Of a DNA stretch of 64,000 nucleotides, positions 46,639 to 63,575 are shown piece after piece. The notes below the pieces were generated by a model. The model made no database searches. It had not been told where the DNA came from and saw only the letters and a program-made list of their open reading frames with translations. Numbering within the stretch: the first letter of the stretch is position 1; each line of letters begins with the position of its first letter. A program made the position numbers and the translations under genes. The DNA is taken from the NCBI GenBank assembly GCA_963748825.1, contig CAVVKN010000012.1:32001-96000 (forward strand), read 5' to 3'. The DNA is from Methanotrichaceae archaeon. Lineage in GTDB: Archaea; Halobacteriota; Methanosarcinia; Methanotrichales; Methanotrichaceae.

Positions 46639-49600
46639 TCACCTAGTTCTTCCTATGACGATCACCTTTTTGCTCACCACCTGATTTAGAAGCAAATAGT
46701 CCAGGCCTATCGCGCTGTCGTAGCCGGTAGCCGGCGCGTGCTTGCCGTCTCGGGCGTAGACAAAAACCCTATAGCTGCCGCCATCAATTGGAGCATTGGT
46801 CCAAGTCCACTGGTTCTTTGTAGACCAATCCTGCACAATCTTCCAGGCATTGCCTGTAGTGGGGCCCATCAGCCAGAACCGGTAGAGTATCGGATCTTTA
46901 TTGGCATCAGTGGCCATTGCAGTCCATTTTACTGCCGTTCCTGCACTCTGCGGACTTATCTTATCCGGCACCAGAGCCGTCAGCTTGGGTGGCTCATTGG
47001 GAGTGAGCTGATATGGCGCTCCCAATGCGCTATCGTAACTGGTTACAGGGCTATGCTTTCCATCCCGGGCGTAGACATAGACTATGTAAGCCCCGTCGTC
47101 GCTGCCGGAACTGGTCCAGGTCCACTGGTTGTTTATGGACCAATCCTGCACCACCTTCCAGGCATTGCCTGTGGTGGGGCCCTTCAGCCAGAACCGGTAG
47201 AGTATCGGATCTTTATTGGCATCAGTGGCCGTTGCAGTCCATTTCACTGTCGTTCCTGCACTCTGTGAGCTCTTTTTATCGGGAGTCAGAGTTGCCAGCT
47301 TGGGTGGCTGATTGGGAGTGAGCAGATACGGTGCCCCCAGTGCGCTATCGTAACCAGTCGCAGGATTATGTTTTGCGTCCCGGGCGAAGACATAGACGGT
47401 ATAAGCTCCACCATTGCTGGGGGAATCGGCCCATGTCCACTGGTTCTTTGTCGACCAATCCTGCACTACCTTCCAGGCATTGCCCGTGGATGGACCCGTT
47501 AGCCAGAATTTGTAGAATACCGGCTCTCTATCCGGATCTGAGGCCACTGCCGTCCACTTTATGGGCGTGCCGGCAACCTGGGCGCTGGGCTTGTCTGGCT
47601 TCAGGGAGATGAGAGTGGGCGGCAGGTTTGGCCGCAGCACGGTGAAAAGAGCTCCTGCATCGTCATCCCATCCAGCCGGGCTGGAGTGCAGGCCGTCTCT
47701 CACTTGCACCTGAATCTCGCTTGTTCCTGCGTCAGCAGGCGAGGTGGGCCATACCCAGGTAGAGTCGGTGGACCAATCCCGCGCAATCTTCCAGAATCCG
47801 CCCGTAGCTGGTCCCTTTACCCAGTACCTGTAGAACACAGGGTTTCCTTCTGGGTCCATGGCTGATGCCCGCCACCCTACGGTGGCACCTATGGGCTGCG
47901 GGCTAAACACATTGCTGGCCAGGCTGGTGATAACCGGCGGAAGGTTCTGGTTGATGATAGAGAAGCGAGCGATTTCATAGTCGTCTGAGCCTCCCGGTCC
48001 GGCATGATTTCCGTCCCTAACTGCTACCAGCACCTCGCTGTTGCCGGCGTCCATGGGATTGGTTCTCCAGATCCAGCGGTTGTTCTTGCCCCAGCCGGTC
48101 TGGTCCATCCAAAATCCGTTGGTAGAAGGCCCGCGCAGATAGAACTTGTACTGCAGGGGATTTCCCTCCGGATCTGAGGCCAGTGCTGTCCACCTAATCC
48201 AGCTTCCCACAAACTGAGGAGCCGGCCGATCGGAGAACAGTACATTGACTCGTGGCGGCAGGTTGGCGACCGTCAGCTTATAAGTGATCGGTTTCCTGGC
48301 ATCAAAGCCGTTCGCATCGGAATGCATTCCATCTCTAACCCATACCTCAACCTGATAATCGCCAGGCACGTATCCAACTGTGCTCCAAGCCCAGAAGGCA
48401 CTTGTCGTGTAGCCCGTATCGGAACGAACCTGGCTGCTTGGGGCAGGTCCTTTGATGACGAACCTGTACTGCAGCGGATCGTTCTCCGTATCTGTGGCCG
48501 TGGCGGTCAGGACTATAGACTGACCTACTCTTTGCGGGCTGGTTGGGTTAGCCGTCAGAGTCAAGACCGTCGGAAGTAGGTTGTTGTTCCTATTGCCGAA
48601 GTTCAACTCCTTACTGTCGCCTGCCACCAGGGCAAACGTGGTAAATGCAGGCGAAGTTGCCGTCCAGCCGCTCTGTAAGACCTCGCTCAATGTGTAGCTT
48701 CCCGGATCCAGATTTGTGAAGCTGTACCCGCCGTTGACGTTGGTGGTTGTGGTCAGCTCCACGCTCGTGGAAAGGTTCATGAGCTTGATCGTCCAGCCGG
48801 AGAGGCCGGGCTCGCCGTTGTTGGCTCCATTACCATTGATGTCGTTGTACTTGACGCCCCAGACAGAGGCCTTGCCGGGCGGGGAGACAAGCCTATTGCC
48901 GAAGTTCTGGTTGGTCTTGCTGCCGGGCAGGGTAACCGTAAGCTCTGTTGCCGTAGTCGGCGTCCAGCCGAGCTGTGAGAACTCGCTTACCTTGTAGATT
49001 CCCGGGAAGAGCTTCTTGAAGCTGTAAGCTCCCGTGGCATCGGTCTTGGTCTTGGCCAGGATTATGTCATGGACAGGACCGCCTACCGGCCCCACGAAGG
49101 TCAAGGCCATCTGCCAGTTGGCAATTCCCGGCTCGCCAGCGTCTTTCACGCTATTTCCGTTCAGATCGTTCCACTTGACCCCTGATATGGAGGATGTGCC
49201 AAATATGGGAATGGGCGCGATGATCAGCGATTTTACTGTAATGCTGACGATAATGGGATCGTCCACCTCATAGGTTCCGGGAGCGAGGTTGCTGAATGTG
49301 TAGGAGCCGTCCTCGTCCGAGGTCACATTGGCGATCTCTTTTCCGTTTTGCACAAGCGTCACAGGCTGCCCTGGAATGGATGGTTCATCCGAGTCCTGCA
49401 CTCCGTTCTCATTGGTATCGTAGAACTTGACACCGGAGATGGTAAATCCGCCTTTGTTGCCGAAGTCCTTGCCGGTTACGTCAGCATCCAGCAGGTCCAC
49501 TGTGTAGGATCCCTCCTGGGGCAGGCTGACGGTCCATCCTTCCGAAGCGACCTCGCTTACGGTGTACTTGCCCGGAGCGAGGTTCTTGAAGGCATAGGAG

Positions 49601-52600
49601 CCATCCTGACTGGAAGTGGTGGCATTGATAACACTTTCCATCCTGGGAGAGCTGGACATTCCAGCCGGCCTGGCCGGTCTCATCAGCATCCTTGGCACCA
49701 TTTCCATTGCTGTCAAGGAATACGCTTCCGGATATGGCCCAGGACCCGTGGTTTCCGAAGTCCTTGCCCGTTATATCGGCATCTGAGAGCGTTATAGAGT
49801 AGGAGCCCTCCGCAGGTGCCGTCCTGACCCAGCCGGACTGCTCTGTCTCGGTGACGGTGTAGGTGCCGGGCAGGAGGGTCTCAAACCTGTAAGATCCGTC
49901 CTTTGCTGTTGTCAGTTCCTTTTGCACAGCCTCATTGCTCTGAGCTGTGCCGGAGAGCGTGATCTTCCAGCCCTCCATTCCCGGCTCGCCCTCATTGGCT
50001 CCATTGCCGTCAAGGTCGTTGTACTTCATGCCGGATATGCTGTAGGATGTCAGCTTATTGGCGAAGTTCTTGTCCGTAGCATCGCTGTCTTTCAATTCTA
50101 CTGAGTAAGCATCCTCTTGGGGAATTGTCCTGATCCAGCCGGAGGGCAATGTCTCGCTGACTGTGTAGCTTCCCGCCAAAAGTCGCTCGAAGCGGTACGA
50201 TCCGTCCACACTCGTCAGGGCGGAAACCTCGCTGTTATCGGGTTTAGCAAGTCGGATCGTCCAGCCGGATAAGGCCTCGCCGCTATCTAAGAGTCCGTTT
50301 CCGTTCTTATCATCATAAGCTGTGCCGGAAATGTTCATGGCCAGCTCGCTGATGGTGAAAAAGGCTACAACCTCGCTATCAGAGCTGTCTTCAGCCGCGT
50401 GCTTGCCGTCTCTTACCTGAACTTTGACCTGGTTTTCGCCGGCATCCGCAGAGGATGTCGTCTGGGTCCAGGTCTTGGCATCGCCCCACTCAGTCACAGG
50501 CTGCCAGGCTCCGCCGGTTACAGGTCCGCTCAGGAAGAAGCGGTAGAGCAATGGGTCAGAGTCAGCATCAGTGGCCTCGGCAGTCCAGGTAATGGTTGTG
50601 CCGGGAATCTGGGGACTGATTAAATCTGCTGTCAGAGATTTCAAGACTGGTGTCTGGTTCACTGCAGCGGGAATCAAAGGCTCCGTTTCATTAACGGGCT
50701 GCGCCGGTATTGTCACATTTTCCGGTGCTATAGGTGTGGTAATGTTGTCTCCCGCAGGAGGTACAACGGTCTCCGGGGCAATCGTCACAGCTTCCGTCTC
50801 ATTGGCGGGCTGCTGTGTCGCATTTTCCGGTGCTACGGGTATGGTTATGTTTTCTGTCACAGGAGGTAGCACGCTCTCCGGAACAGTCGTCGCAGGCCCC
50901 GTCTTATTCTCTTCTGGCACTGTTACATTCTCGGCCGTAACAGGCTCTTGCACCGGCTTGATTTCGGGCGCAGGAGCATTTATGGAAAACTCGCGGCTCA
51001 TGTTGCCGGCTTCTCCCAGCGGTCCCTCATGCAGGCTATCTTTAACCTGTACTGAGATCTGGCTGGTGCCGGGCTGCATGGCTATCCAGGCCCACAGGTT
51101 CTCTGGTTGCCAATCTGTGGCAGGCGTGTCGTTGACCAGGAAGCGATATGAAATTGGATCGGATTCCGGATCACTGGCCTGAGCTGTCCAGGTGACTGTT
51201 GTTCCCAATAGTTGTGGGCTTTCGCTGTCCGCAGTCAAACCGGCAAGAGCTGGAGATTCATTGAGCTTGGCCGGTACTACTTCTGCGAGCACAGGTGCTG
51301 GTGCATTTATGGAAAACTCGCGGCTCATGTTGCCGGCTTCTCCCAGCGGTCCCTCATGCAGGCTATCTTTAACCTGTACTGAGATCTGGCTGGTGCCGGG
51401 CTGCATGGCTATCCAGGCCCACAGGTTCTCTGGTTGCCAATCTGTGGCAGGCGTGTCGTTGACCAGGAAGCGATATGAAATTGGATCAGATTCCGGATCA
51501 CTGGCCTGAGCTGTCCAGGTGACTGTTGTTCCCAATAGTTGTGGGCTTTCGCTGTCCGCAGTCAAACCGGCAAGAGCTGGAGATTCATTGAGCTTGGCCG
51601 GTACTACTTCTGCGAGCACAGGTGCTGGTGCATTTATGGAAAACTCGCGGCTCATGTTGCCGGCTTCTCCCAGCGGTCCCTCATGCAGGCTATCTTTAAC
51701 CTGTACTGAGATCTGGCTGGTGCCGGGCTGCATGGCTATCCAGGCCCACAGGTTCTCTGGTTGCCAATCTGTGGCAGGCGTGTCGTTGACCAGGAAGCGA
51801 TATGAAATTGGATCAGATTCCGGATCACTGGCCTGAGCTGTCCAGGTGACTGTTGTTCCCAATAGTTGTGGGCTTTCGCTGTCCGCAGTCAAACCGGCAA
51901 GAGCTGGAGATTCATTGAGCTTGGCCGGTACTACTTCTGCGAGCACAGGTGCTGGTGCATTTATGGAAAACTCGCGGCTCATGTTGCCGGCTTCTCCCAG
52001 CGGTCCCTCATGCAGGCTATCTTTAACCTGTACTGAGATCTGGCTGGTGCCGGGCTGCATGGCTATCCAGGCCCACAGGTTCTCTGGTTGCCAATCTGTG
52101 GCAGGCGTGTCGTTGACCAGGAAGCGATATGAAATTGGATCAGATTCCGGATCACTGGCCTGAGCTGTCCAGGTGACTGTTGTTCCCAATAGTTGTGGGC
52201 TTTCGCTGTCCGCAGTCAAACCGGCAAGAGCTGGAGATTCATTGAGCTTGGCCGGTACTACTTCTGCGAGCACAGGTGCTGGTGCATTTATGGAAAACTC
52301 GCTGCTCATGTTGCCGACTTCTCCCAGCGGTCCCTCATGCAGGCTATCTTTAACCTGTACTGAGATCTGGCTGGTGCCGGGCTGCATGGCTATCCAGGCC
52401 CACAGGTTCTCTGGTTGCCAATCTGTGGCAGGCGTGTCGTTGACCAGGAAGCGATATGAAATTGGATCAGATTCCGGATCACTGGCCTGAGCTGTCCAGG
52501 TGACTGTTGTTCCCAATAGTTGTGGGCTTTCGCTGTCCGCAGTCAAACCGGCAAGAGCTGGAGATTCATTGAGCTTGGCCGGTACTACTTCTGCGAGCAC

Positions 52601-55600
52601 AGGTGCTGGTGCATTTATGGAAAACTCGCGGCTCATGTTGCCGACTTCTCCCAGCGGTCCCTCATGCAGGCTATCTTTAACCTGTACTGAGATCTGGCTG
52701 GTGCCGGGCTGCATGGCTATCCAGGCCCACAGGTTCTCTGGTTGCCAATCTGTGGCAGGCGTGTCGTTGACCAGGAAGCGATATGAAATTGGATCGGATT
52801 CCGGATCACTGGCCTGAGCTGTCCAGGTGACTGTTGTTCCCAATAGTTGTGGGCTTTCGCTGTCCGCAGTCAAGCCAGCAAGAACTGGGGCATTGTTGGG
52901 CGGAAGAACTATCTCGAAGTTGGCGCTGCTGGCGCTGTCTCCTTCTGCATTGTGCTTTTCATCCCTTACCTTGGCCTCAATGGCATGCTGTCCGACCTGC
53001 TCCGCGGCAGCGGTCCAGCTCCAGACGGGGCTCTCCGACCAATCCTGCATTACCTGTCCGTCCATTGAGAACTGGAATTGCAGGGGATCGTTCTCGGCAT
53101 CAGATGCAACTGCCGTCCAGATTACTGCGGTTCCTGTAACCTGTGGGCTCTCTTTGTCTGCGGTCAGGCTGCTCATGACCGGAGCAGTGTTGGGAGGCAG
53201 AACTATCTCGAAGTTAGCGCTGCTTGCGCTGTCTCCGTCCTGGTTATGCTTTCCATCTCTTACCTTGGCCTCAAAGGCATGCTGTCCGACCTGTTCCGCG
53301 ACAGCCGTCCAGCTCCAGACGGGGCTCTCCGACCAATCCTGCACTACCTGTCCGTCCATTAAGAACTGGAATTGCAGGGGATCGTTCTCGGCATCAGATG
53401 CAACTGCCGTCCAGATTACTGCGGTTCCTGTAACCTGCGGGCTCTCTTTGTCTGCGGTCAGGCTGCTCATGACCGGAGCAGTGTTGGGCGGCAGAACTAT
53501 CTCGAAGTTAGCGCTGCTGGCGCTGTCTCCTTCTGCATTGTGCTTTCCATCTCTTACCTTGGCCTCAATGGCATGCTGTCCGACCTGCTCCGCGGCAGCC
53601 GTCCAGCTCCAGACAGGGCTCTCCGACCAGTCCTGCATTACCTGTCCATCCATTGAGAACTGGAATTGCAGGGGATCGTTCTCGACATCAGATGCAACTG
53701 CCGTCCAGATTACTGCGGTTCCTGTAACCTGTGGGCTCTCTTTGTCTGCGGTCAGGCTGCTCATGACCGGAGCAGTGTTGGGCGGCAGAACTATCTCGAA
53801 GTTAGCGCTGCTGGCGCTGTCTCCTTCTGCATTGTGCTTTCCATCTCTTACCTTGGCCTCAATGGCATGCTGTCCGACCTGTTCCGCGGCAGCCGTCCAG
53901 CTCCAGACGGGGCTCTCGGACCAATCCTGCACTACCTGTCCGTCCATTGAGAACTGGAATTGCAGGGGATCATTCTCGGCATCAGATGCAACTGCCGTCC
54001 AGATTACTGCGGTTCCTGTAACCTGCGGGCTCTCTTTGTCTGCGGTCAGGCTGCTCATGACCGGAGCAGTGTTGGGCGGCAGAACTATCTCGAAGTTGGC
54101 GCTGCTGGCGCTGTCTCCGTCCTGGTTATGCTTTCCATCTCTTACCTTGGCCTCAATGGCATGCTGTCCGACCTGTTCCGCGACAGCCGTCCAGCTCCAG
54201 ACAGGGCTCTCCGACCAGTCCTGCATTACCTGTCCGTCCATTGAGAACTGGAATTGCAGGGGATCGTTCTCTGGATCAGATGCAACTGCCGTCCAGATTA
54301 CTGCGGTTCCTGTAACCTGTGGGCTCTCTTTGTCTGCGGTCAGGCTGCTCATGACCGGTGCGTTGTTAGGCGGCAGAACTATCTCGAAGTTGGCGCTGCT
54401 CGAGCTGTCTCCTTCAGGATTGTGCTTTCCATCTCTTATCTTGGCCTCGATGACATGCCGTCCTACCTGCTCTTTGGCTGCATTCCAGCTCCAGCCTGGG
54501 CTATCCGACCAGTCCTGCACTACCTGTCCGTCCAGGGAAAACTGGAATTGCAATGGATCGTTCTCAGAATCCATAAAATCCACATTCCAGGTGATAGTCG
54601 AACCTATCTCCTGGGGGCTGAGCTTGTCAGGACTGAAATTAATGATCGCAGGTTTCTGGTTAGGCGGCATTACGATGAACGTCGCGCTCTTCCTGTCATC
54701 AAATCCGTCCTGCTCGGCATGCTTACCATCTCTTACCTGAACCTCTACCTGGGCTTCGCCCTCAGCTGCAGTCCAGGTCCATTGTTTGTTGGGCTGCCAA
54801 TCGGTTGTAGGAAGCCCGTTCAAAAAGAACCTATATAAAATTGGATCACTTTCGGCGTCATTGGCCTGGGCCGTCCAGGTTACAATGCTGCCTGTCTCCT
54901 GGGGACTGGCCTTATCAGATGACAAATCGGATATTACTGGCTTCTCATTGGGCTTGTTTATGATGAAGCTTGCCTTCTGGGACGAGTCGCCATCCGCATT
55001 ATGTGTGCCGTCCTTAACTCTTACCTCTATACTATGAGCGCCAAAATCATTGGCAGAGGTTTGCCAGGTCCATTGATTCTGGTATTGCCATCCGGTTACC
55101 GGCTGATTGTCCAGCAGGAACAGGAACTGCAGACCATCGCTTTCCTGGTCACTGGCTTCCGCCGCCCAGGTTACTGATGTACCGGCTTCCTGGGGGCTGG
55201 CGAGATCAGAGGTCAAGCTGATCATGACAGGAGCCAGATTTGCAGGTGTCGTTACCTGTGGCTGCTCCACCTGTTGCATCTGGGGGGGCTGTTGTTCCTC
55301 TACGGGCGGCACGTAAGCTTGCTCTGGGGCCGTCACAATGGGTAAAGGCTCAACAATTGGCTGCGCCTGGACTTCCGGGGGAGCTGGGGGGGCCGTTAAC
55401 AAAAAGTCAACTATTTTCTCATCCTGAGTAAATTGGGGGCCGGCATGAGTTTCATCTCTAACTGAAACGCTTATCTGGTATTTTCCGGCATCTTGTGAAT
55501 TAGTATCCCATTTCCACGTATTGTCCGGGGACCATTGGCTTACCGGCTTCCATACGTCTACAGGCCCCCATACGTCTCCCGTGGATGGCCCTCTTAGCCG

Positions 55601-55921
55601 GAACGTGAAGAACATGGGATCATTTTCCGGGTCCTCTGCTTTGGCCGTCCATTTTATGGAGCTGCCTGCTTCCTGGGGGCTGGGTTTATCGCTTTCAAGA
55701 GCGGTGAGCTTGGGCTGCTGGTTATAGCCCACTCCGCCCAGGTTATCCGGCGTGGAGAAATCCCCCACTCCTGAAGATCCCGGCTGCGGATCGAATTGTG
55801 CGAAGGCCGATATGGCCAGTAGCACTCCCGTTATCATTAACACTGCAAAGACGAGAAATACGTCCCTGTACTTGCGCTTGAATCTAGTCTTATTTTTGCA
55901 ATTGCTATCCGGTTTTTGCAT
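46639..55921 (-). CDS. Giant secreted Ig-like repeat surface protein (~3090 aa) with SdrD-B/Cna-B-like domains; one +1 frameshift near 49636
   Basis: Signal peptide; repeated ~100-aa beta domains (SPQ..G..V.WTA.ASD.E.DP..Y/F.F..DW..W.W..VRDG.H); SdrD-B motifs ISG.K.ND.DGNG..G.Y.F..L.PG.Y.V.E; deleting one A joins QDG to SVINATT. Confidence 0.8.
46700..47620 (-). repeat. Three 315-bp intragenic tandem domain repeats
   Basis: Anchor GCGCTRTCGTA at 46712, 47027 and 47342. Confidence 0.8.
50975..52885 (-). repeat. Six near-identical 327-bp intragenic tandem repeats (109 aa)
   Basis: Shadow ORF starts recur every 327 nt (51192, 51519, 51846, 52173, 52500, 52827); only a few substitutions between copies. 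Confidence 0.95.
52890..54660 (-). repeat. Five near-identical 294-bp intragenic tandem repeats (98 aa) plus one diverged copy
   Basis: Shadow ORF starts recur every 294 nt (53078, 53372, 53666, 53960, 54254). Confidence 0.95.
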
Positions 55922-58914: not shown

Positions 58915-59364
58915 GGAGATACTTTATTGCAATCAATGGATAAAAGGCTCTGCACGAGTTGCACTGATGCGCTACAGCTTGCTTTTCCGGGGCTTCAGGA
59001 TCATTGTCGTTATAAGTATAGTATATCGACCATTCATATGCTATATGGGATGTAGCAAATGGGAGTGAGTGGTCCAAAACAACGATTCTTGAATGTGTCA
59101 TATCCAAATGAGCAGGCGTACTCAACTTGATGCGGAAGGAAAAGCAACGAAACTAATTTTAGCAAGAGGAAGGCCTTGACATTTCAGCCTACTAGATGTT
59201 AGCGGCCCTTTTGTGAATTTTTCACAATAAATCATATATATCAGGCTTGTACTAATGCGAAACAAAAAGCGAGATTCAACTGGCGCTAAAGGTGCCTCTC
59301 CAAGCTTTAACGGAACCCAAGATCATGCCATCTTCGGCTTTGCTGATGAAGACGGGAGGAGATT

Positions 59365-59601
59365 ATGATGTCAGAATCAACAGAAAAAGGAACAAGCAAA
59401 GTGAAAGTAGCTGTAAGGAGCACCTTCCTTGCGCAATCCTGCGGTGCTGTTGACGAACGAGAATGCAGTATGATAAAACATCTAATCCTGGCTGAAACGC
59501 GAAGATCAAATGCGCCTGCCTGGGTGGCGGAAGAGCTGGACAAAATGCTCAATTGTCCCGCATGCAGAGGCTCGCATCTATTCCTTGATCAGAGACAATG
59601 A
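59365..59601 (+). CDS. Small Cys-containing hypothetical protein ahead of the redox operon
   Basis: GGGAGGA SD upstream; C-x7-C and CPAC. Confidence 0.45.
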   Translation: MMSESTEKGTSKVKVAVRSTFLAQSCGAVDERECSMIKHLILAETRRSNAPAWVAEELDKMLNCPACRGSHLFLDQRQ

Positions 59602-59680
59602 GAACTCTATTAGGAATACGGGGGAATTATTGGAAGAGGGGCAGAGAGAACCCCTAAGAAAAGCCCAGGGAGGTGGCATT

Positions 59681-60148
59681 ATGAACGATGCTGACAAGGA
59701 AAAGCTGAATAATATAATAAAAAAATATAATGGAAAAGAAGGATTCTTGATCCAGTTGCTCTTAGATCTGCAAAGCGAGTTGCATTGGATCTCCAAAGAA
59801 GCCATCGGGGAGCTTTCCCAGAGGCTTAAGATTCCAGCAAGCCAGATATTCAGAGTGGCGAGCTTCTACAAAGCGATGAATCTCTCTCCCGTAGGCCGGC
59901 ATAAAGTATGCGTTTGCATGGGAACCGCCTGCCAGGTGCGAGGCGCTCAGAGATTGCTGGATGCAACACAGTCAAAATTGGGGATAAAACCGGGACAGAC
60001 TACGCCGGACAATAGCTTCACTCTAGATAGGGTCAACTGCCTGGGATGCTGCGCCATCGGCCCGGTAATTGTAGTAGATAATGATTATTATGGCCGGGTG
60101 GACTCCAAGAGGGTAGAGAAGATATTGGGCAAGCTTGCACTCGAATAG
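59681..60148 (+). CDS. NuoE/HydC-like [2Fe-2S] subunit
   Basis: VASFY, VCMGTACQVRG, VNCLGCCAIGP; GGAGGTGG SD upstream of ATG 59681. Confidence 0.9.
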   Translation: MNDADKEKLNNIIKKYNGKEGFLIQLLLDLQSELHWISKEAIGELSQRLKIPASQIFRVASFYKAMNLSPVGRHKVCVCMGTACQVRGAQRLLDATQSKLGIKPGQTTPDNSFTLDRVNCLGCCAIGPVIVVDNDYYGRVDSKRVEKILGKLALE

Positions 60149-60186
60149 TCAATATCAGTCAGTGATTAGAAAAAAATGGGGAAGAG

Positions 60187-62097
60187 ATGGCAAGACTTAC
60201 ATCAATTCAGGATCTGGAGATCTTGAGAGATGAGATCACGTGCACGAGAGATCCCAAGAAAAAAATTGTGGCAATCTGTGCCGGTACCGGCTGCCAAGGC
60301 CTTGGCGCGGGAAAGGTCGTCAGCGCCTTTAAAAGCGAGGTTGAGAAGAGGGGTCTGCATAGAGAGATCAGCATCAAGGAGACGGGGTGTCCCGGCTTTT
60401 GCGAAAAAGGGACTCTCGTGGTTGTATATCCGCAGGGAATCTATTACATGGGCGTCCAGCCGGATGACGTTCCGGAGATCGTGGAGGAGACCATTCTCAA
60501 AGGCGAGCTGGTAGAACGCCTTCTTTATACAGATCCTGCAACCGGGCTAAAGGCAATACTGGAAGATGATATCCCGTTTTATAATCATCAGATGAGACTT
60601 CTAATAAAAAATAATATAAAAATAAATCCTAGAAATATATACGACTACATCGCCCTGGGTGGCTATGCCGCTCTAGCTCGCGCCTTATCACAGATGACTT
60701 CTCAAGAGGTAATTGATGAGATAAAAAAGTCAGGCCTCAGAGGGAGGGGTGGAGGCGGATTTCCCACCGGGAAAAAATGGGAATCGACAGCGGGAGCGTT
60801 CGGAGACCCCAAATATGTGATCGTCAATTGCGATGAGGGAGACCCGGGTGCCTTCATGGATCGTGCCCTCATGGAAGGCAATCCGCACAGCGTTTTGGAG
60901 GGGCTGATAATTGGAGCCTATGCGGTTGGAGCGCATAGCGGCTACATCTACGTGCGCATGGAGTATCCTCTGGCCGTGGAAAATGCAAAATTCGCCCTGC
61001 ATCAGGCCCGGGAGCTGGGCCTTCTTGGGAAGAACATACTTGGCAGCGGATTTGATTTCGATGTAACCGTGCATAGAGGTGCGGGTGCCTTTGTCTCTGG
61101 AGAGTCAACCGCTCTCATGAACGCCCTGGAGGGCAAAGTGGGCGAGCCCCGGCCCAAATATGTCCATACCTCTGAGTGCGGGGTCTGGAATCGACCCAGC
61201 CTGCTCAACAATGTGGAGACCTGGGCCAATATCCCTCTCATCATCAACCGGGGAGCCGAATGGTTTTCCTCCATTGGAACGGAAAGAAGCAAGGGAACCA
61301 AGATCTTCTCACTGGTAGGAAAGGTCAACAATACCGGTCTGGTGGAAGTTCCCATGGGCATGAGCCTGGCCGACATAGTTTACAAGATAGGAGGTGGAAT
61401 TCCTGGTGGAAAAAAGCTCAAAGGAGTGCAGACGGGAGGTCCCTCCGGTGGAATAATTCCTGCCCGGCATTTGCAGACGCCGGTTGACTTCGACGAGCTT
61501 ACGAGCCTTGGTTCCATGATGGGCTCAGGCAGCATAATTGTTATAGACGAGGATACTTGCGTCGTAGATTTGGCTCGCTACTTTGTGGACTTTCTCTGCG
61601 ATGAGTCCTGCGGCAAGTGCCTGCCTTGCCGGGAGGGCCTGAAACAAATGCGAGAGATATTAGACGGCATTGTTTCCGGCAAAGGGCATGAGGGAGATCT
61701 GCGAATTCTCAAAGAGATAGCAGAGCTGATGAAAAATGCGTCGCTGTGTGCATTGGGTCGGACGGCAGTAAATCCAGTTTTAAGCACAATTGCCCACTTT
61801 CCAGATGAATATGCTGCCCATATAATTGAGAAAAGGTGCCCCTCTCTGGCCTGCAAAGCCCTTGTTTCATATTTCATAGAGCCAGAGATCTGTATAGGGT
61901 GCGGTCTGTGCCAGAAGAACTGTCCCCAAGGAGCCATCGAGGGAGAGGAGGACAGCATCAGCGTCATAGATCAGTCCCGCTGCACTCGATGCGGCATTTG
62001 CTTTGAGGTATGTCCACCTAAGGTGAGGGCTGTCAAGAAGGTCTCCCGAGGACTTTCTCATTCTGCTGAGAGACTCAAGAGAGGTGAGAAGGCATGA
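60187..62097 (+). CDS. NuoF/HydB-like FMN/NAD(P)H subunit with N-terminal [2Fe-2S] and C-terminal 2x[4Fe-4S]
   Basis: CAGTGC..CPGFC, GLRGRGGGGFPTG, NCDEGDPGAFMDR, GGPSGG, ESCGKCLPCREG, SLCALG, CIGCGLC..CP, CTRCGIC..CP. Confidence 0.92.
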   Translation: MARLTSIQDLEILRDEITCTRDPKKKIVAICAGTGCQGLGAGKVVSAFKSEVEKRGLHREISIKETGCPGFCEKGTLVVVYPQGIYYMGVQPDDVPEIVEETILKGELVERLLYTDPATGLKAILEDDIPFYNHQMRLLIKNNIKINPRNIYDYIALGGYAALARALSQMTSQEVIDEIKKSGLRGRGGGGFPTGKKWESTAGAFGDPKYVIVNCDEGDPGAFMDRALMEGNPHSVLEGLIIGAYAVGAHSGYIYVRMEYPLAVENAKFALHQARELGLLGKNILGSGFDFDVTVHRGAGAFVSGESTALMNALEGKVGEPRPKYVHTSECGVWNRPSLLNNVETWANIPLIINRGAEWFSSIGTERSKGTKIFSLVGKVNNTGLVEVPMGMSLADIVYKIGGGIPGGKKLKGVQTGGPSGGIIPARHLQTPVDFDELTSLGSMMGSGSIIVIDEDTCVVDLARYFVDFLCDESCGKCLPCREGLKQMREILDGIVSGKGHEGDLRILKEIAELMKNASLCALGRTAVNPVLSTIAHFPDEYAAHIIEKRCPSLACKALVSYFIEPEICIGCGLCQKNCPQGAIEGEEDSISVIDQSRCTRCGICFEVCPPKVRAVKKVSRGLSHSAERLKRGEKA

Positions 62098-63575
62098 TCA
62101 AGTTGAAGATCAAGATCGACGGTCGTGAGATTGAAACCGATGCCAAGAGCTGCCCGGCCACGATACTGGAGGCAGCAAGGCTGGCCGGCATCCATATTCC
62201 TACATTATGCCATCATCCTTCTCTCGGACCCTATGGATCTTGCCGGCTGTGTACGGTGCAGATCGAAAAAAATGGCCGGAAAAAGTTTGTCACCGCCTGC
62301 AACTATCCGGTAGAGGAGGGACTTGTCGTAAATACTCGCTCACCGGAGGTTTTAGACATTCGCAAGATGATCTTAGAGCTTCTCATAGCCCGATGCCCCC
62401 AGGAGAAGAAGTTGCTGGAGCTGGCCGGAGAATATGGGATTTTCAAGCCTCGCTTTATGCTGGAGGATAAAAATTGCATCCTCTGCGGATTGTGCCACCG
62501 GGTCTGCGAGGAGCTGGTGGGTGTATCGGCTATAAGTGCTCAGAATCGAGGAGTTACCAGGGATGTGGATACGCCCTACGGGGAATTATCGGAAGACTGC
62601 ATCGGATGCGGTGCATGTGCTCTGGTATGTCCCACAAAGTCCATATTGGAAAGAAAAAACATCTACCCACTGTCCTCTGCCGATATCAAAGATATGGAAG
62701 AGGAATTTCTCAGTGGAACTATTGATGACGATCTGGGAGTCAATAGGGAAATATTTGCCGGCAGGAGCAGCATAGAGGGACAGGATGGAGGGATGGTAAC
62801 CTCAATTCTCCAACAAGGAATTGAAACAGGGCTGCTGGATGCGGCTGTGGTTGCTCAAAAAGATACGAGCTTGGGAGCAAAAGCAACTCTAGTTGACGAA
62901 ACTGATCTGATTTTGCAGGCCAGGGGGACGAAGTATGTGCGGGTGTCTGTTATCGCCCCGCTTATGGATGCCTTGAACAGCGGCAAAAGGAGAATTGCCG
63001 TTGTCGGCACGCCCTGTCAGATCCGAGTGGTTAGAAAATTGCAGATGCAGGGATATTTTAATGAAAAATTTCCTGATGCTGAGATATTTCTCATAGGCCT
63101 CTTCTGTTTCGAAAGCTTCGATTATGAATCTCTCAAGAGTCACATCCGAGAGCTTTTCGGCATAAATCTTGATAGTGCCGAAAGGGTCCAGATCGCCAGA
63201 GGAAAATTCATAGTGGCAATAGACGGCAAAGAGCACTCCTGCCGTGTGCGGGAGCTTGAACGCGAGGTGAGGTCAGGCTGCGGATTTTGTGATGATCTGG
63301 TCAGCCGGCTGGCGGACATATCCGTAGGTTCGATTGGAAGCCCGGATGGATACTCCACGGTGATAGTCAGATCAGAGAGAGGGGAAAAGCTGCTGGAAGC
63401 GGCGGTGTTTAGTCGAAGAGAGATAAACAGGGATGAGATCGTTAAGCTGGCTGGATTTAAAAAGAAAAATGCAGATAAAAATTTTGCCGGGATTGTGGCA
63501 GGGCTGCCGGAACGATTTGAGACGGAGAAGAGGGAATATGCTCCTGTTTACAGCAATTTGGGCATTTCATCCTGA
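62094..63575 (+). CDS. NuoG/HydA N-terminal FeS module fused to an FrhB/FdhB-type F420-binding domain
   Basis: IPTLC..GSCRLC..TAC, CILCGLCHRVC, CIGCGACALVCP, then GQDGGMVTSIL, VVGTPCQ, IGLFCFESF, CGFCDD..ADISVGSIGSP. Confidence 0.88.
   Translation: MIKLKIKIDGREIETDAKSCPATILEAARLAGIHIPTLCHHPSLGPYGSCRLCTVQIEKNGRKKFVTACNYPVEEGLVVNTRSPEVLDIRKMILELLIARCPQEKKLLELAGEYGIFKPRFMLEDKNCILCGLCHRVCEELVGVSAISAQNRGVTRDVDTPYGELSEDCIGCGACALVCPTKSILERKNIYPLSSADIKDMEEEFLSGTIDDDLGVNREIFAGRSSIEGQDGGMVTSILQQGIETGLLDAAVVAQKDTSLGAKATLVDETDLILQARGTKYVRVSVIAPLMDALNSGKRRIAVVGTPCQIRVVRKLQMQGYFNEKFPDAEIFLIGLFCFESFDYESLKSHIRELFGINLDSAERVQIARGKFIVAIDGKEHSCRVRELEREVRSGCGFCDDLVSRLADISVGSIGSPDGYSTVIVRSERGEKLLEAAVFSRREINRDEIVKLAGFKKKNADKNFAGIVAGLPERFETEKREYAPVYSNLGISS

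Follow-up and report, generated by a model that had tools for sequence, protein, structure and literature searches.

A three-gene locus of a Methanotrichaceae archaeon predicted to encode a ferredoxin- and NAD(H)-coupled F420 enzyme of the F420-Bfu type

Within the Bfu class of flavoenzymes, Schut et al. (2022, Front Microbiol 13:946711, PMC9304861) described a subtype named F420-Bfu, which is of Type 1, has a BfuB of clade 45 and a BfuA with only the clusters A1, A2 and A4, and was named from two Methanosaetaceae sequences. The authors proposed that it oxidizes NADH and ferredoxin to produce reduced coenzyme F420 (F420H2) for biosynthesis, and they placed the WOR-type BfuB in the same clade. 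In WorABCSL, which is described as bifurcating electrons to NAD and ferredoxin, the WorA subunit was reported to lack A3 and to receive electrons at A4 (PNAS 2025, PMC12318220). Chadwick et al. (2022, PLoS Biol, PMC9012536) noted 'FrhB8' in gene clusters that also contain thioredoxin and divergent NuoF genes and that are found almost exclusively in anaerobic methanotrophic archaea (ANME). Here we describe three adjacent genes in a 64,000-nucleotide stretch of a Methanotrichaceae genome (contig CAVVKN010000012.1, positions 32,001 to 96,000; hereafter the window). The trio almost certainly belongs to the published F420-Bfu architecture and, judged from its sequence, probably encodes a ferredoxin- and NAD(H)-coupled F420 enzyme of the soluble Bfu type.

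The window represents contig C12 of a 2.88-Mb genome that is 94.9% complete, and its closest relatives, according to their titles, are metagenome-assembled genomes (MAGs) of Methanothrix or Methanotrichaceae. Three intact, co-directional open reading frames (ORFs) on the + strand span positions 59681-63575, as follows:

59681..60148, + strand: bfuC (HydC/NuoE-like), thioredoxin-like [2Fe-2S] subunit C, 155 aa; PF01257, invariant Cys, ribosome-binding site
60187..62097, + strand: bfuB (HydB/NuoF-like), FMN/NAD(H) subunit B, 636 aa; Pfam domains, solved bifurcating relatives, invariant ligands
62094..63575, + strand: bfuA::frhB fusion, subunit A, 493 aa; Pfam and NCBIfam matches, ligand invariance

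The start of bfuA::frhB overlaps the stop of bfuB by 4 nt, and the ribosome-binding site GGAGGTG precedes the ATG of bfuC. A first-pass annotation had read these genes as HydC- and HydB-like subunits followed by a fusion of an Fe-S relay with FrhB, and the ORF list and the Pfam and NCBIfam matches agree with that reading. Its further statement that H-cluster, NiFe and molybdopterin domains are absent also holds, since Pfam detected none of them in the trio or in those neighbouring genes that were examined.

Ligand conservation was assessed in alignments of sequences from the window and from related loci, which comprised 49 sequences of subunit C, 48 of subunit B and 57 of subunit A; rows with less than 90% coverage or an internal stop were excluded. 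Subunit C contains the 2Fe-2S_thioredx domain (PF01257, E 2.8e-49) and matches the NuoE/HoxE/FdsG models of NCBIfam. Its residues C79, C84, C120, C123 and C124 are invariant in 49/49 sequences, as expected of a BfuC with one [2Fe-2S] cluster. Subunit B has a weak N-terminal 2Fe-2S_thioredx match, followed by Complex1_51K (PF01512, 1.7e-44), SLBB, NADH_4Fe-4S (PF10589, 8.2e-32) and a C-terminal 4Fe-4S dicluster, i.e., a NuoF-type core for flavin mononucleotide (FMN) and NAD(H) with an N3-type [4Fe-4S] cluster. All 20 Cys/His ligands of B are invariant in the 48 homologues, which come from several archaeal lineages. They comprise the N-terminal [2Fe-2S] ligands C31/36/68/72, the N3-type [4Fe-4S] ligands C475/478/481/521, a Cys3His site formed by C458/H545/C551/C556 (C...H-x5-C-x4-C), and the C-terminal 2x[4Fe-4S] motifs C569/572/575/579 and C599/602/605/609. 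The Cys3His site probably corresponds to the Zn/'B2' site. The motifs GAFM, KIF and GGPSG were located at residues 221-224, 372-374 and 417-421; with the Cys3His pattern and the N- and C-terminal clusters, every feature of B listed in the first-pass annotation could be recovered.

B has the ligands of all the extra BfuB clusters by the criterion of Schut et al., in register with 7t2r_B, 8a6t_B and 9mqx_B. In the accessible part of that article (PMC9304861), non-bifurcating homologues are described as lacking these additional clusters, and A202, M204 and F182 at the FMN/NADH site (numbering of Acetomicrobium mobile) are said to be specific to bifurcating members. Two of these three residues could be mapped onto B, where A202 corresponds to A222 and M204 to M224, each present in 48/48 sequences. 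The B subunits of solved bifurcating complexes, to which B is 55-60% identical, can be aligned with it over about 580-610 residues. The scores were 764 bits with 7t2r_B of the A. mobile NiFe-HydABCSL (B residues 28-610), 758 bits with the HydB chain 8a6t_B, 718 bits with WorB (9mqx_B), 709 bits with the HydB chain 7q4v_B, 650 bits with Thermotoga maritima HydB (7p5h_B) and 644 bits with NfnB (9n5u_B). B is about as close to proven bifurcating enzymes as those are to one another. In contrast, the non-bifurcating Nqo1, NuoF and FdsB match only its central core, within residues of about 35-550 and with about 320-360 bits (for Nqo1, 359 bits over residues 153-550 only), and the extra N- and C-terminal clusters separate B from the non-bifurcating NuoEF-type modules (Nqo1/2, FdsBG and HoxFU).

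Subunit A combines an Fe-S N-terminus with an FrhB domain. Pfam matches were obtained to Fer2_4 (2.9e-14), a 4Fe-4S dicluster, FrhB_FdhB_N (5.7e-13) and FrhB_FdhB_C (1.2e-39), and both FrhB domains score above their cut-offs (PF04422, 49.3 bits against 22; PF04432, 136 bits against 23.3). The [2Fe-2S] ligands C39/50/53/69, the 2x[4Fe-4S] ligands C128/131/134/138 and C169/172/175/179, and Cys 308, 338, 396 and 399 within the FrhB domain (about residues 222-438) are invariant in 57/57 sequences. HydA and NuoG carry the motif His-x3-Cys-x2-Cys-x5-Cys. In A this motif is replaced, and the stretch 96-102 keeps only C101, which is found in 56/57 homologues; the His-Cys3 cluster is therefore missing, as had been suspected at first pass. 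A thus has A1, A2 and A4 but neither A3 nor A5, and it is fused to an F420-dehydrogenase (FrhB) domain, the composition that defines the F420-Bfu subtype. The best structural match of its N-terminus is WorA (9mqx_A, E 2e-43), and the region of A3 aligns without gaps to the A3-less WorA. This resemblance to the A3-less subunit of a bifurcating enzyme that is fed via A4 supports our reading. The C-terminus matches Fsr (7npa_A, with A residues 169-458) and the FrhB structures 9r51_B, 3zfs_C and 6qii_B. Residues 125-464 are collinear with the FpoF models of NCBIfam, and alignments show that A shares the conserved motifs of F420-reactive FrhB, Fsr and FpoF.

The gene order is widely conserved. We compared 63 loci with a relative of A from species-representative genomes, whose titles include Methanothrix/Methanotrichaceae, ANME-1/Methanophagales, Ca. 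Methanolliviera, one Bathyarchaeota genome and one Hadarchaeota genome. The same order C-B-A was found in 47/63 loci, including two (L017 and L058) in which the best high-scoring segment pairs cover only part of B or A. In 6/63 loci B-A is present and the contig ends before C, in another 6/63 A lies at a contig edge, and in 4/63 upstream DNA is present without B or C. The recurrence of C-B-A in 47/63 related loci places the association of the trio far beyond chance. In all three genomes with a lone A (L038, L057 and L066), a BfuB orthologue 67-74% identical to B is encoded elsewhere in the genome, and one such split BfuB orthologue follows a BfuC gene and precedes a gene for a pyridine-nucleotide-disulfide oxidoreductase. 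In a Methanotrichaceae MAG (L062, 1147-2582), all that remains of A are its last 185 residues, which come directly after a QueG-like gene, C and B being absent from between the two; this reflects either an operon deletion or a misassembly. We also observed a BfuB orthologue in frame with a DEAD-box helicase in an 873-aa open frame (L078, G495:C39), which is probably an assembly or frame artefact.

When A was counted as present at E <= 1e-60, it was found in 48/104 other Methanotrichaceae genomes and in 37/58 genomes of the window's genus. F420-type BfuB orthologues (at least 64% identity) occur in 47/48 of the other Methanotrichaceae genomes with A and in 0/56 of those without A. Across 401 evenly sampled genomes of the phylum, the matches to A concentrate in one other family (f13), where 48/54 genomes have one. 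These 48 matches consist of 30 full-length fusions, 6 fusions cut by contig ends and 12 matches to the FpoF-like part only. A second clade of this family, formed by divergent ANME-1, has an A that is only 42-46% identical, yet the order C-B-A is kept.

The domain order of the trio is the one expected for a Type 1 Bfu enzyme, which supports the F420-Bfu reading. The genome encodes Fno (228.6 bits, above the cut-off), Mer and Mtd, and bfuB is its only NuoF-family gene; the presence of these F420 users and partners, and of a single NuoF-family gene, supports the same reading. We infer that the three proteins form a complex, that F420 is its third substrate, that NAD is used rather than NADP, and that electrons are bifurcated. 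The product would be a heterotrimeric or multimeric soluble flavoenzyme, in which the FrhB domain of A would bind flavin adenine dinucleotide (FAD) and exchange hydride with F420. Single electrons would pass from the FrhB [4Fe-4S] cluster through A4, A2 and A1, with no A3 branch, to the BfuBC core, where one FMN and the neighbouring clusters would couple them to NAD+/NADH at the flavin. Ferredoxin would be reached via the mobile cluster of C and the C-terminal 2x[4Fe-4S] of B, following the family description in the available parts of PMC9304861 and PMC12318220.

The net reaction, which would be reversible, can be written as 2 F420H2 + NAD+ + 2 Fd(ox) <-> 2 F420 + NADH + 2 Fd(red), where Fd is ferredoxin. 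Table 1 of Schut et al. (2022, PMC9304861) gives potentials of -360 mV for F420, and E' of -280 mV for NADH and -500 mV for ferredoxin. Because the potential of F420 lies between those of NADH and ferredoxin, the net reaction should be near equilibrium. During growth on acetate, ferredoxin is the primary reductant, so that F420H2 formation would also need NADH. In the opposite direction, F420H2 from methyl-group oxidation via Mer and Mtd would yield NADH and return low-potential ferredoxin. The first-pass annotation had proposed a soluble hub coupling F420, NAD(P)H and ferredoxin, which is the same inference as that of Schut et al. for F420-Bfu and describes a predicted activity.

Several observations weigh against this reading. 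If ferredoxin is the only primary reductant, NADH or F420H2 has to come from a separate source, and the physiological direction could be either one. Judged by sequence alone, NADP could take the place of NAD, the Cys3His site could hold either Zn or [2Fe-2S], and the acceptor could be one of the FrhB family other than F420. No purification, assay or other biochemical characterization of the F420-Bfu subtype was found in the searchable literature. The first-pass annotation had likewise known of no biochemistry and had thought that similar architectures might have been predicted computationally, as indeed they were by Schut et al. The operon is also patchy, being found in 29/64 high-quality Methanotrichaceae genomes (the window's own included), so that it is not essential for acetoclastic growth. 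This patchiness, together with the non-overlap with another Bfu type described below, suggests that the enzyme serves redox balancing and can be replaced, and that it is no core step of acetoclastic methanogenesis. On the supporting side, two groundwater metatranscriptome libraries yielded contigs of a relative about 95% identical that cover 59281-60643 (with the C/B junction) and 60643-63575 (with the B/A junction). They are compatible with co-transcription and a long leader; contigs of this kind can neither prove a single transcript nor exclude carry-over of DNA. Finally, residue 304 of B (window about 61096-61098) is Ser in 48/48 F420-type BfuB sequences, and the aligned position is Cys in the three chains compared (7t2r_B, 8a6t_B and 9mqx_B). 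Ser304 lies in a conserved segment adjoining the flavin site and forms a signature of the clade.

The flavin surroundings of B thus differ from those of the tested bifurcating enzymes, which would suit a non-bifurcating NAD(P)H:F420 oxidoreductase, in which the NuoEF-like module relays electrons along the Fe-S chain and the additional clusters of B have a structural role or are mere vestiges. By the potentials of Schut et al. (PMC9304861), electron transfer from NADH to F420 is near thermodynamically neutral, so that coupling would not be strictly needed. However, the clusters that the non-bifurcating homologues lack, as reported in the part of that article available to us, are exactly those found in B. 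All ligands of these clusters are kept by each of 48 homologues from distant lineages, which argues for their function, and the Fno encoded in the genome already serves the NADP/F420 link. We therefore consider a non-bifurcating enzyme unlikely.

The FrhB domain of A might also use an acceptor other than F420, acting as an FAD/Fe-S module. FrhB-family members of chlorophyll metabolism work with ferredoxin, and A scores below the curated cut-offs of both TIGR03289 frhB (163.1 against 331.5) and NF040616 FpoF (161.5 against 475). Because of these scores, A is regarded as a member of the FrhB family that is an orthologue of neither FrhB nor FpoF. However, the best matches of its FrhB part are all F420-reactive proteins whose motifs it shares, and the hosts are, by title, methanogens, ANME and alkane oxidizers, with Mer, Mtd and Fno present in the window genome. 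A different acceptor is thus very unlikely, and F420 stays our preferred substrate for this domain.

Two further gene sets in the family carry BfuA-type proteins with molybdopterin domains. When BfuB was searched across 105 Methanotrichaceae genomes, a second BfuB set, 46-56% identical to B, was found in 25 genomes, none of which has A. The sole co-occurrence was in G074, which has an F420-type BfuB plus a 46% fragment, and 31/105 genomes have neither A nor B. Among the 25 genomes of the second set, the loci of two (G057 and G002) were inspected. Both loci (L079, G057:C1; L080, G002:C1) encode BfuC, a BfuB about 50% identical to B, a 745-788-aa molybdopterin BfuA whose molybdopterin domain is seemingly reduced, and a PyrK/NfnA-like protein. 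A quick maximum-likelihood tree was computed from 51 BfuB sequences, with support values from SH-aLRT (an approximate likelihood-ratio test) only. In it, a long branch, 100% supported, divides the F420-type sequences from the two of the molybdopterin type. Methanotrichaceae form one clade adjoining Methanolliviera, and ANME-1 form another that includes a long-branched Hadarchaeota row. The window genome itself encodes an FdhA of 916 aa on contig C2 (G000:C2:191773-197903, L074; TIGR01591, 834 bits), which has a BfuA-type N-terminus ([2Fe-2S], His cluster and dicluster) and a molybdopterin domain. Its neighbours are an NfnA/PyrK-like gene, a divergent GltA/NfnB-like gene and a formate transporter, with no FdhB or NuoEF genes beside it at this locus, and a NADP-linked formate dehydrogenase is a possible reading of the sequence.

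It is most unlikely that the BfuBC core cooperates with another catalytic subunit from elsewhere in the genome, with this FdhA as the candidate and the trio as only part of the enzyme. The genome does have one NuoF-type gene and two proteins with a BfuA-type N-terminus, and in G057 and G002 BfuC-BfuB does stand directly beside a molybdopterin-type BfuA and a PyrK/NfnA-like protein 46% identical to the FdhA-adjacent one, but the FdhA has NfnA-like and GltA/NfnB-like partners of its own next to it and is only 34% identical to the relatives' molybdopterin BfuA, F420-type BfuB forms a clade apart from the molybdopterin type, and across lineages only C-B-A is conserved. There is a similarly faint chance that BfuBC is a shared bifurcating hub for two exchangeable BfuA-type inputs, A::FrhB and the C2 FdhA, such that formate/CO2, F420, NAD and ferredoxin would meet at one flavin.

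The genome contains two FrhB-family genes, A::FrhB and a lone 365-aa FrhB-like gene on contig C10 (G000:C10:193584-194681, - strand; L073, 6585-7682). The lone gene scores 265.4 against an FrhB subfamily cut-off of 269. It adjoins genes for an Obg-like GTPase and a hydantoinase-like protein, and no hydrogenase, Hdr or Fdh gene neighbours it at this locus. Two papers on direct interspecies electron transfer (DIET; PMC12072023 and PMC10470525) invoke lone FrhB genes together with Hdr or Fpo (tags Mhar_2358, Mthe_0174 and Mthe_0959), and in their accessible parts a NuoEF-linked F420 enzyme is not mentioned. The C10 gene is a probable candidate for the 'FrhB' of these papers. An F420-reducing hydrogenase FrhABG was not recognized in the genome, where FrhA and FrhG have no support beyond one partial match to the NiFe large subunit PF00374 (model positions 1-68 of 508, 33 bits); none lies near the operon.

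The trio is flanked by genes for Fae, a glutamine amidotransferase-like ORF, a CxxCxxCC protein, DUF5611, SAM synthetase and a divergent QueG/RDH-like Fe-S protein. No hydrogenase, molybdopterin or other catalytic partner was found among the flanking genes examined. The downstream DUF5611 gene and the upstream QueG/RDH-like gene were considered as parts of the system and ruled out, as they are kept only in close Methanothrix relatives (21/65 and 18/65 loci, respectively). Elsewhere in the window, a 2146-aa ORF (49481-55921, - strand) consists of many near-identical tandem repeats of about 90-100 residues and looks, from its sequence, like a surface protein; the long ORFs opposite it are its shadows.

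Two features precede bfuC:

58915..59680, + strand: upstream non-coding/leader region; low GC, RNA contigs, small ORF
59365-59601, + strand: conserved small ORF of 78 aa in the leader of bfuC; strong ribosome-binding site, conserved in relatives

The GC content is 0.448 at 59000-59999. Methanotrichaceae loci conserve the 78-aa ORF at the protein level; two of its Cys are invariant, and another two are kept in most rows. Its relatives lie upstream of C or downstream of A, and in L026 and L028 at both places. A paralogue is encoded on contig C7 of the same genome. The ORF matches no Pfam or NCBIfam family, and its 25 named database relatives are all hypothetical proteins of Methanothrix or Methanosaeta. 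It is truncated in L005, and contigs from RNA libraries of a close relative in two studies skip 98 nt within it (59402-59501), a strain indel in the leader; the ORF may be decaying in some strains. The RNA contigs of both studies start near 59280, which is a weak hint at the transcript start; a run of unrecorded kind extends upstream. Another run, X4, was dropped as evidence of expression or habitat, as it contained only short pieces of 90-95% identity.

Methanothrix species are major methane producers. To our knowledge, they have neither FpoF nor the usual F420-reducing hydrogenase, so that the connection between ferredoxin, F420 and NAD(H) in these organisms is unsettled. If our reading is true, F420-Bfu links the three in about half of the Methanotrichaceae, and the same link exists in ANME-1 and alkane-oxidizing archaea. 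Among enzymes of the Bfu class, it would also be the first that depends on F420. The case for F420-Bfu as this link was made in print in 2022 (Schut et al., PMC9304861). The name was found in the searchable literature only in that article, and the available parts of PMC11543930, PMC12533140 and PMC12621877 contain nothing on the enzyme.

The novelty implied by the first-pass annotation did not stand, as the operon type is in print for Methanosaetaceae (PMC9304861) and was noted in ANME (PMC9012536). The window adds another member and comparative detail rather than a new idea. The architecture is already published; what is added here is the wider distribution, the non-overlap with molybdopterin-type Bfu, the split operons, the invariant Ser, the small upstream ORF and the metatranscriptome contigs that bridge the gene junctions. 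As far as the article of Schut et al. is accessible, their F420-Bfu has the same trio, cluster set, proposed substrates and host family (Methanosaetaceae, now Methanotrichaceae) and shows no architectural difference, whereas here the direction is left either way and the host range is wider. The FrhB8/NuoF-Trx clusters of Chadwick et al. likewise have an FrhB paralogue beside NuoF-like and thioredoxin-like ([2Fe-2S]) genes, and the ANME-1 loci in our survey keep C-B-A. Matched by description only, these clusters appear to be the present operon, to which the available part of that article gave no bifurcation reading.

Among the solved complexes, WorABCSL from A. mobile (9MQX) has the closest BfuA N-terminus, A3-less like that of A. 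However, it is bacterial, and its aldehyde is oxidized on separate tungsten subunits that dock to the C-terminal helix of WorA, whereas here the FrhB module is fused to A (PMC12318220, in its accessible part). The [FeFe] HydABC and [NiFe] HydABCSL enzymes (7p5h, 8a6t, 7q4v and 7t2r) and NfnABC/Stn (9n5u) share the BfuBC core, with B ligands in register. Their A subunits have an H-cluster domain, NiFe docking or an NADPH/FAD domain together with A3, where A has an FrhB domain and no A3; the aligned HydABC-type relatives have Cys in place of Ser304. In FpoF/FqoF, FrhB and the N-terminal half of Fsr, as in A, the FrhB domain comes after a 2x[4Fe-4S] ferredoxin segment. In contrast to these proteins, A has an extra N-terminal [2Fe-2S] domain, and its partner is a NuoEF-like core, where theirs is a hydrogenase, the Fpo membrane complex or a sulfite reductase.

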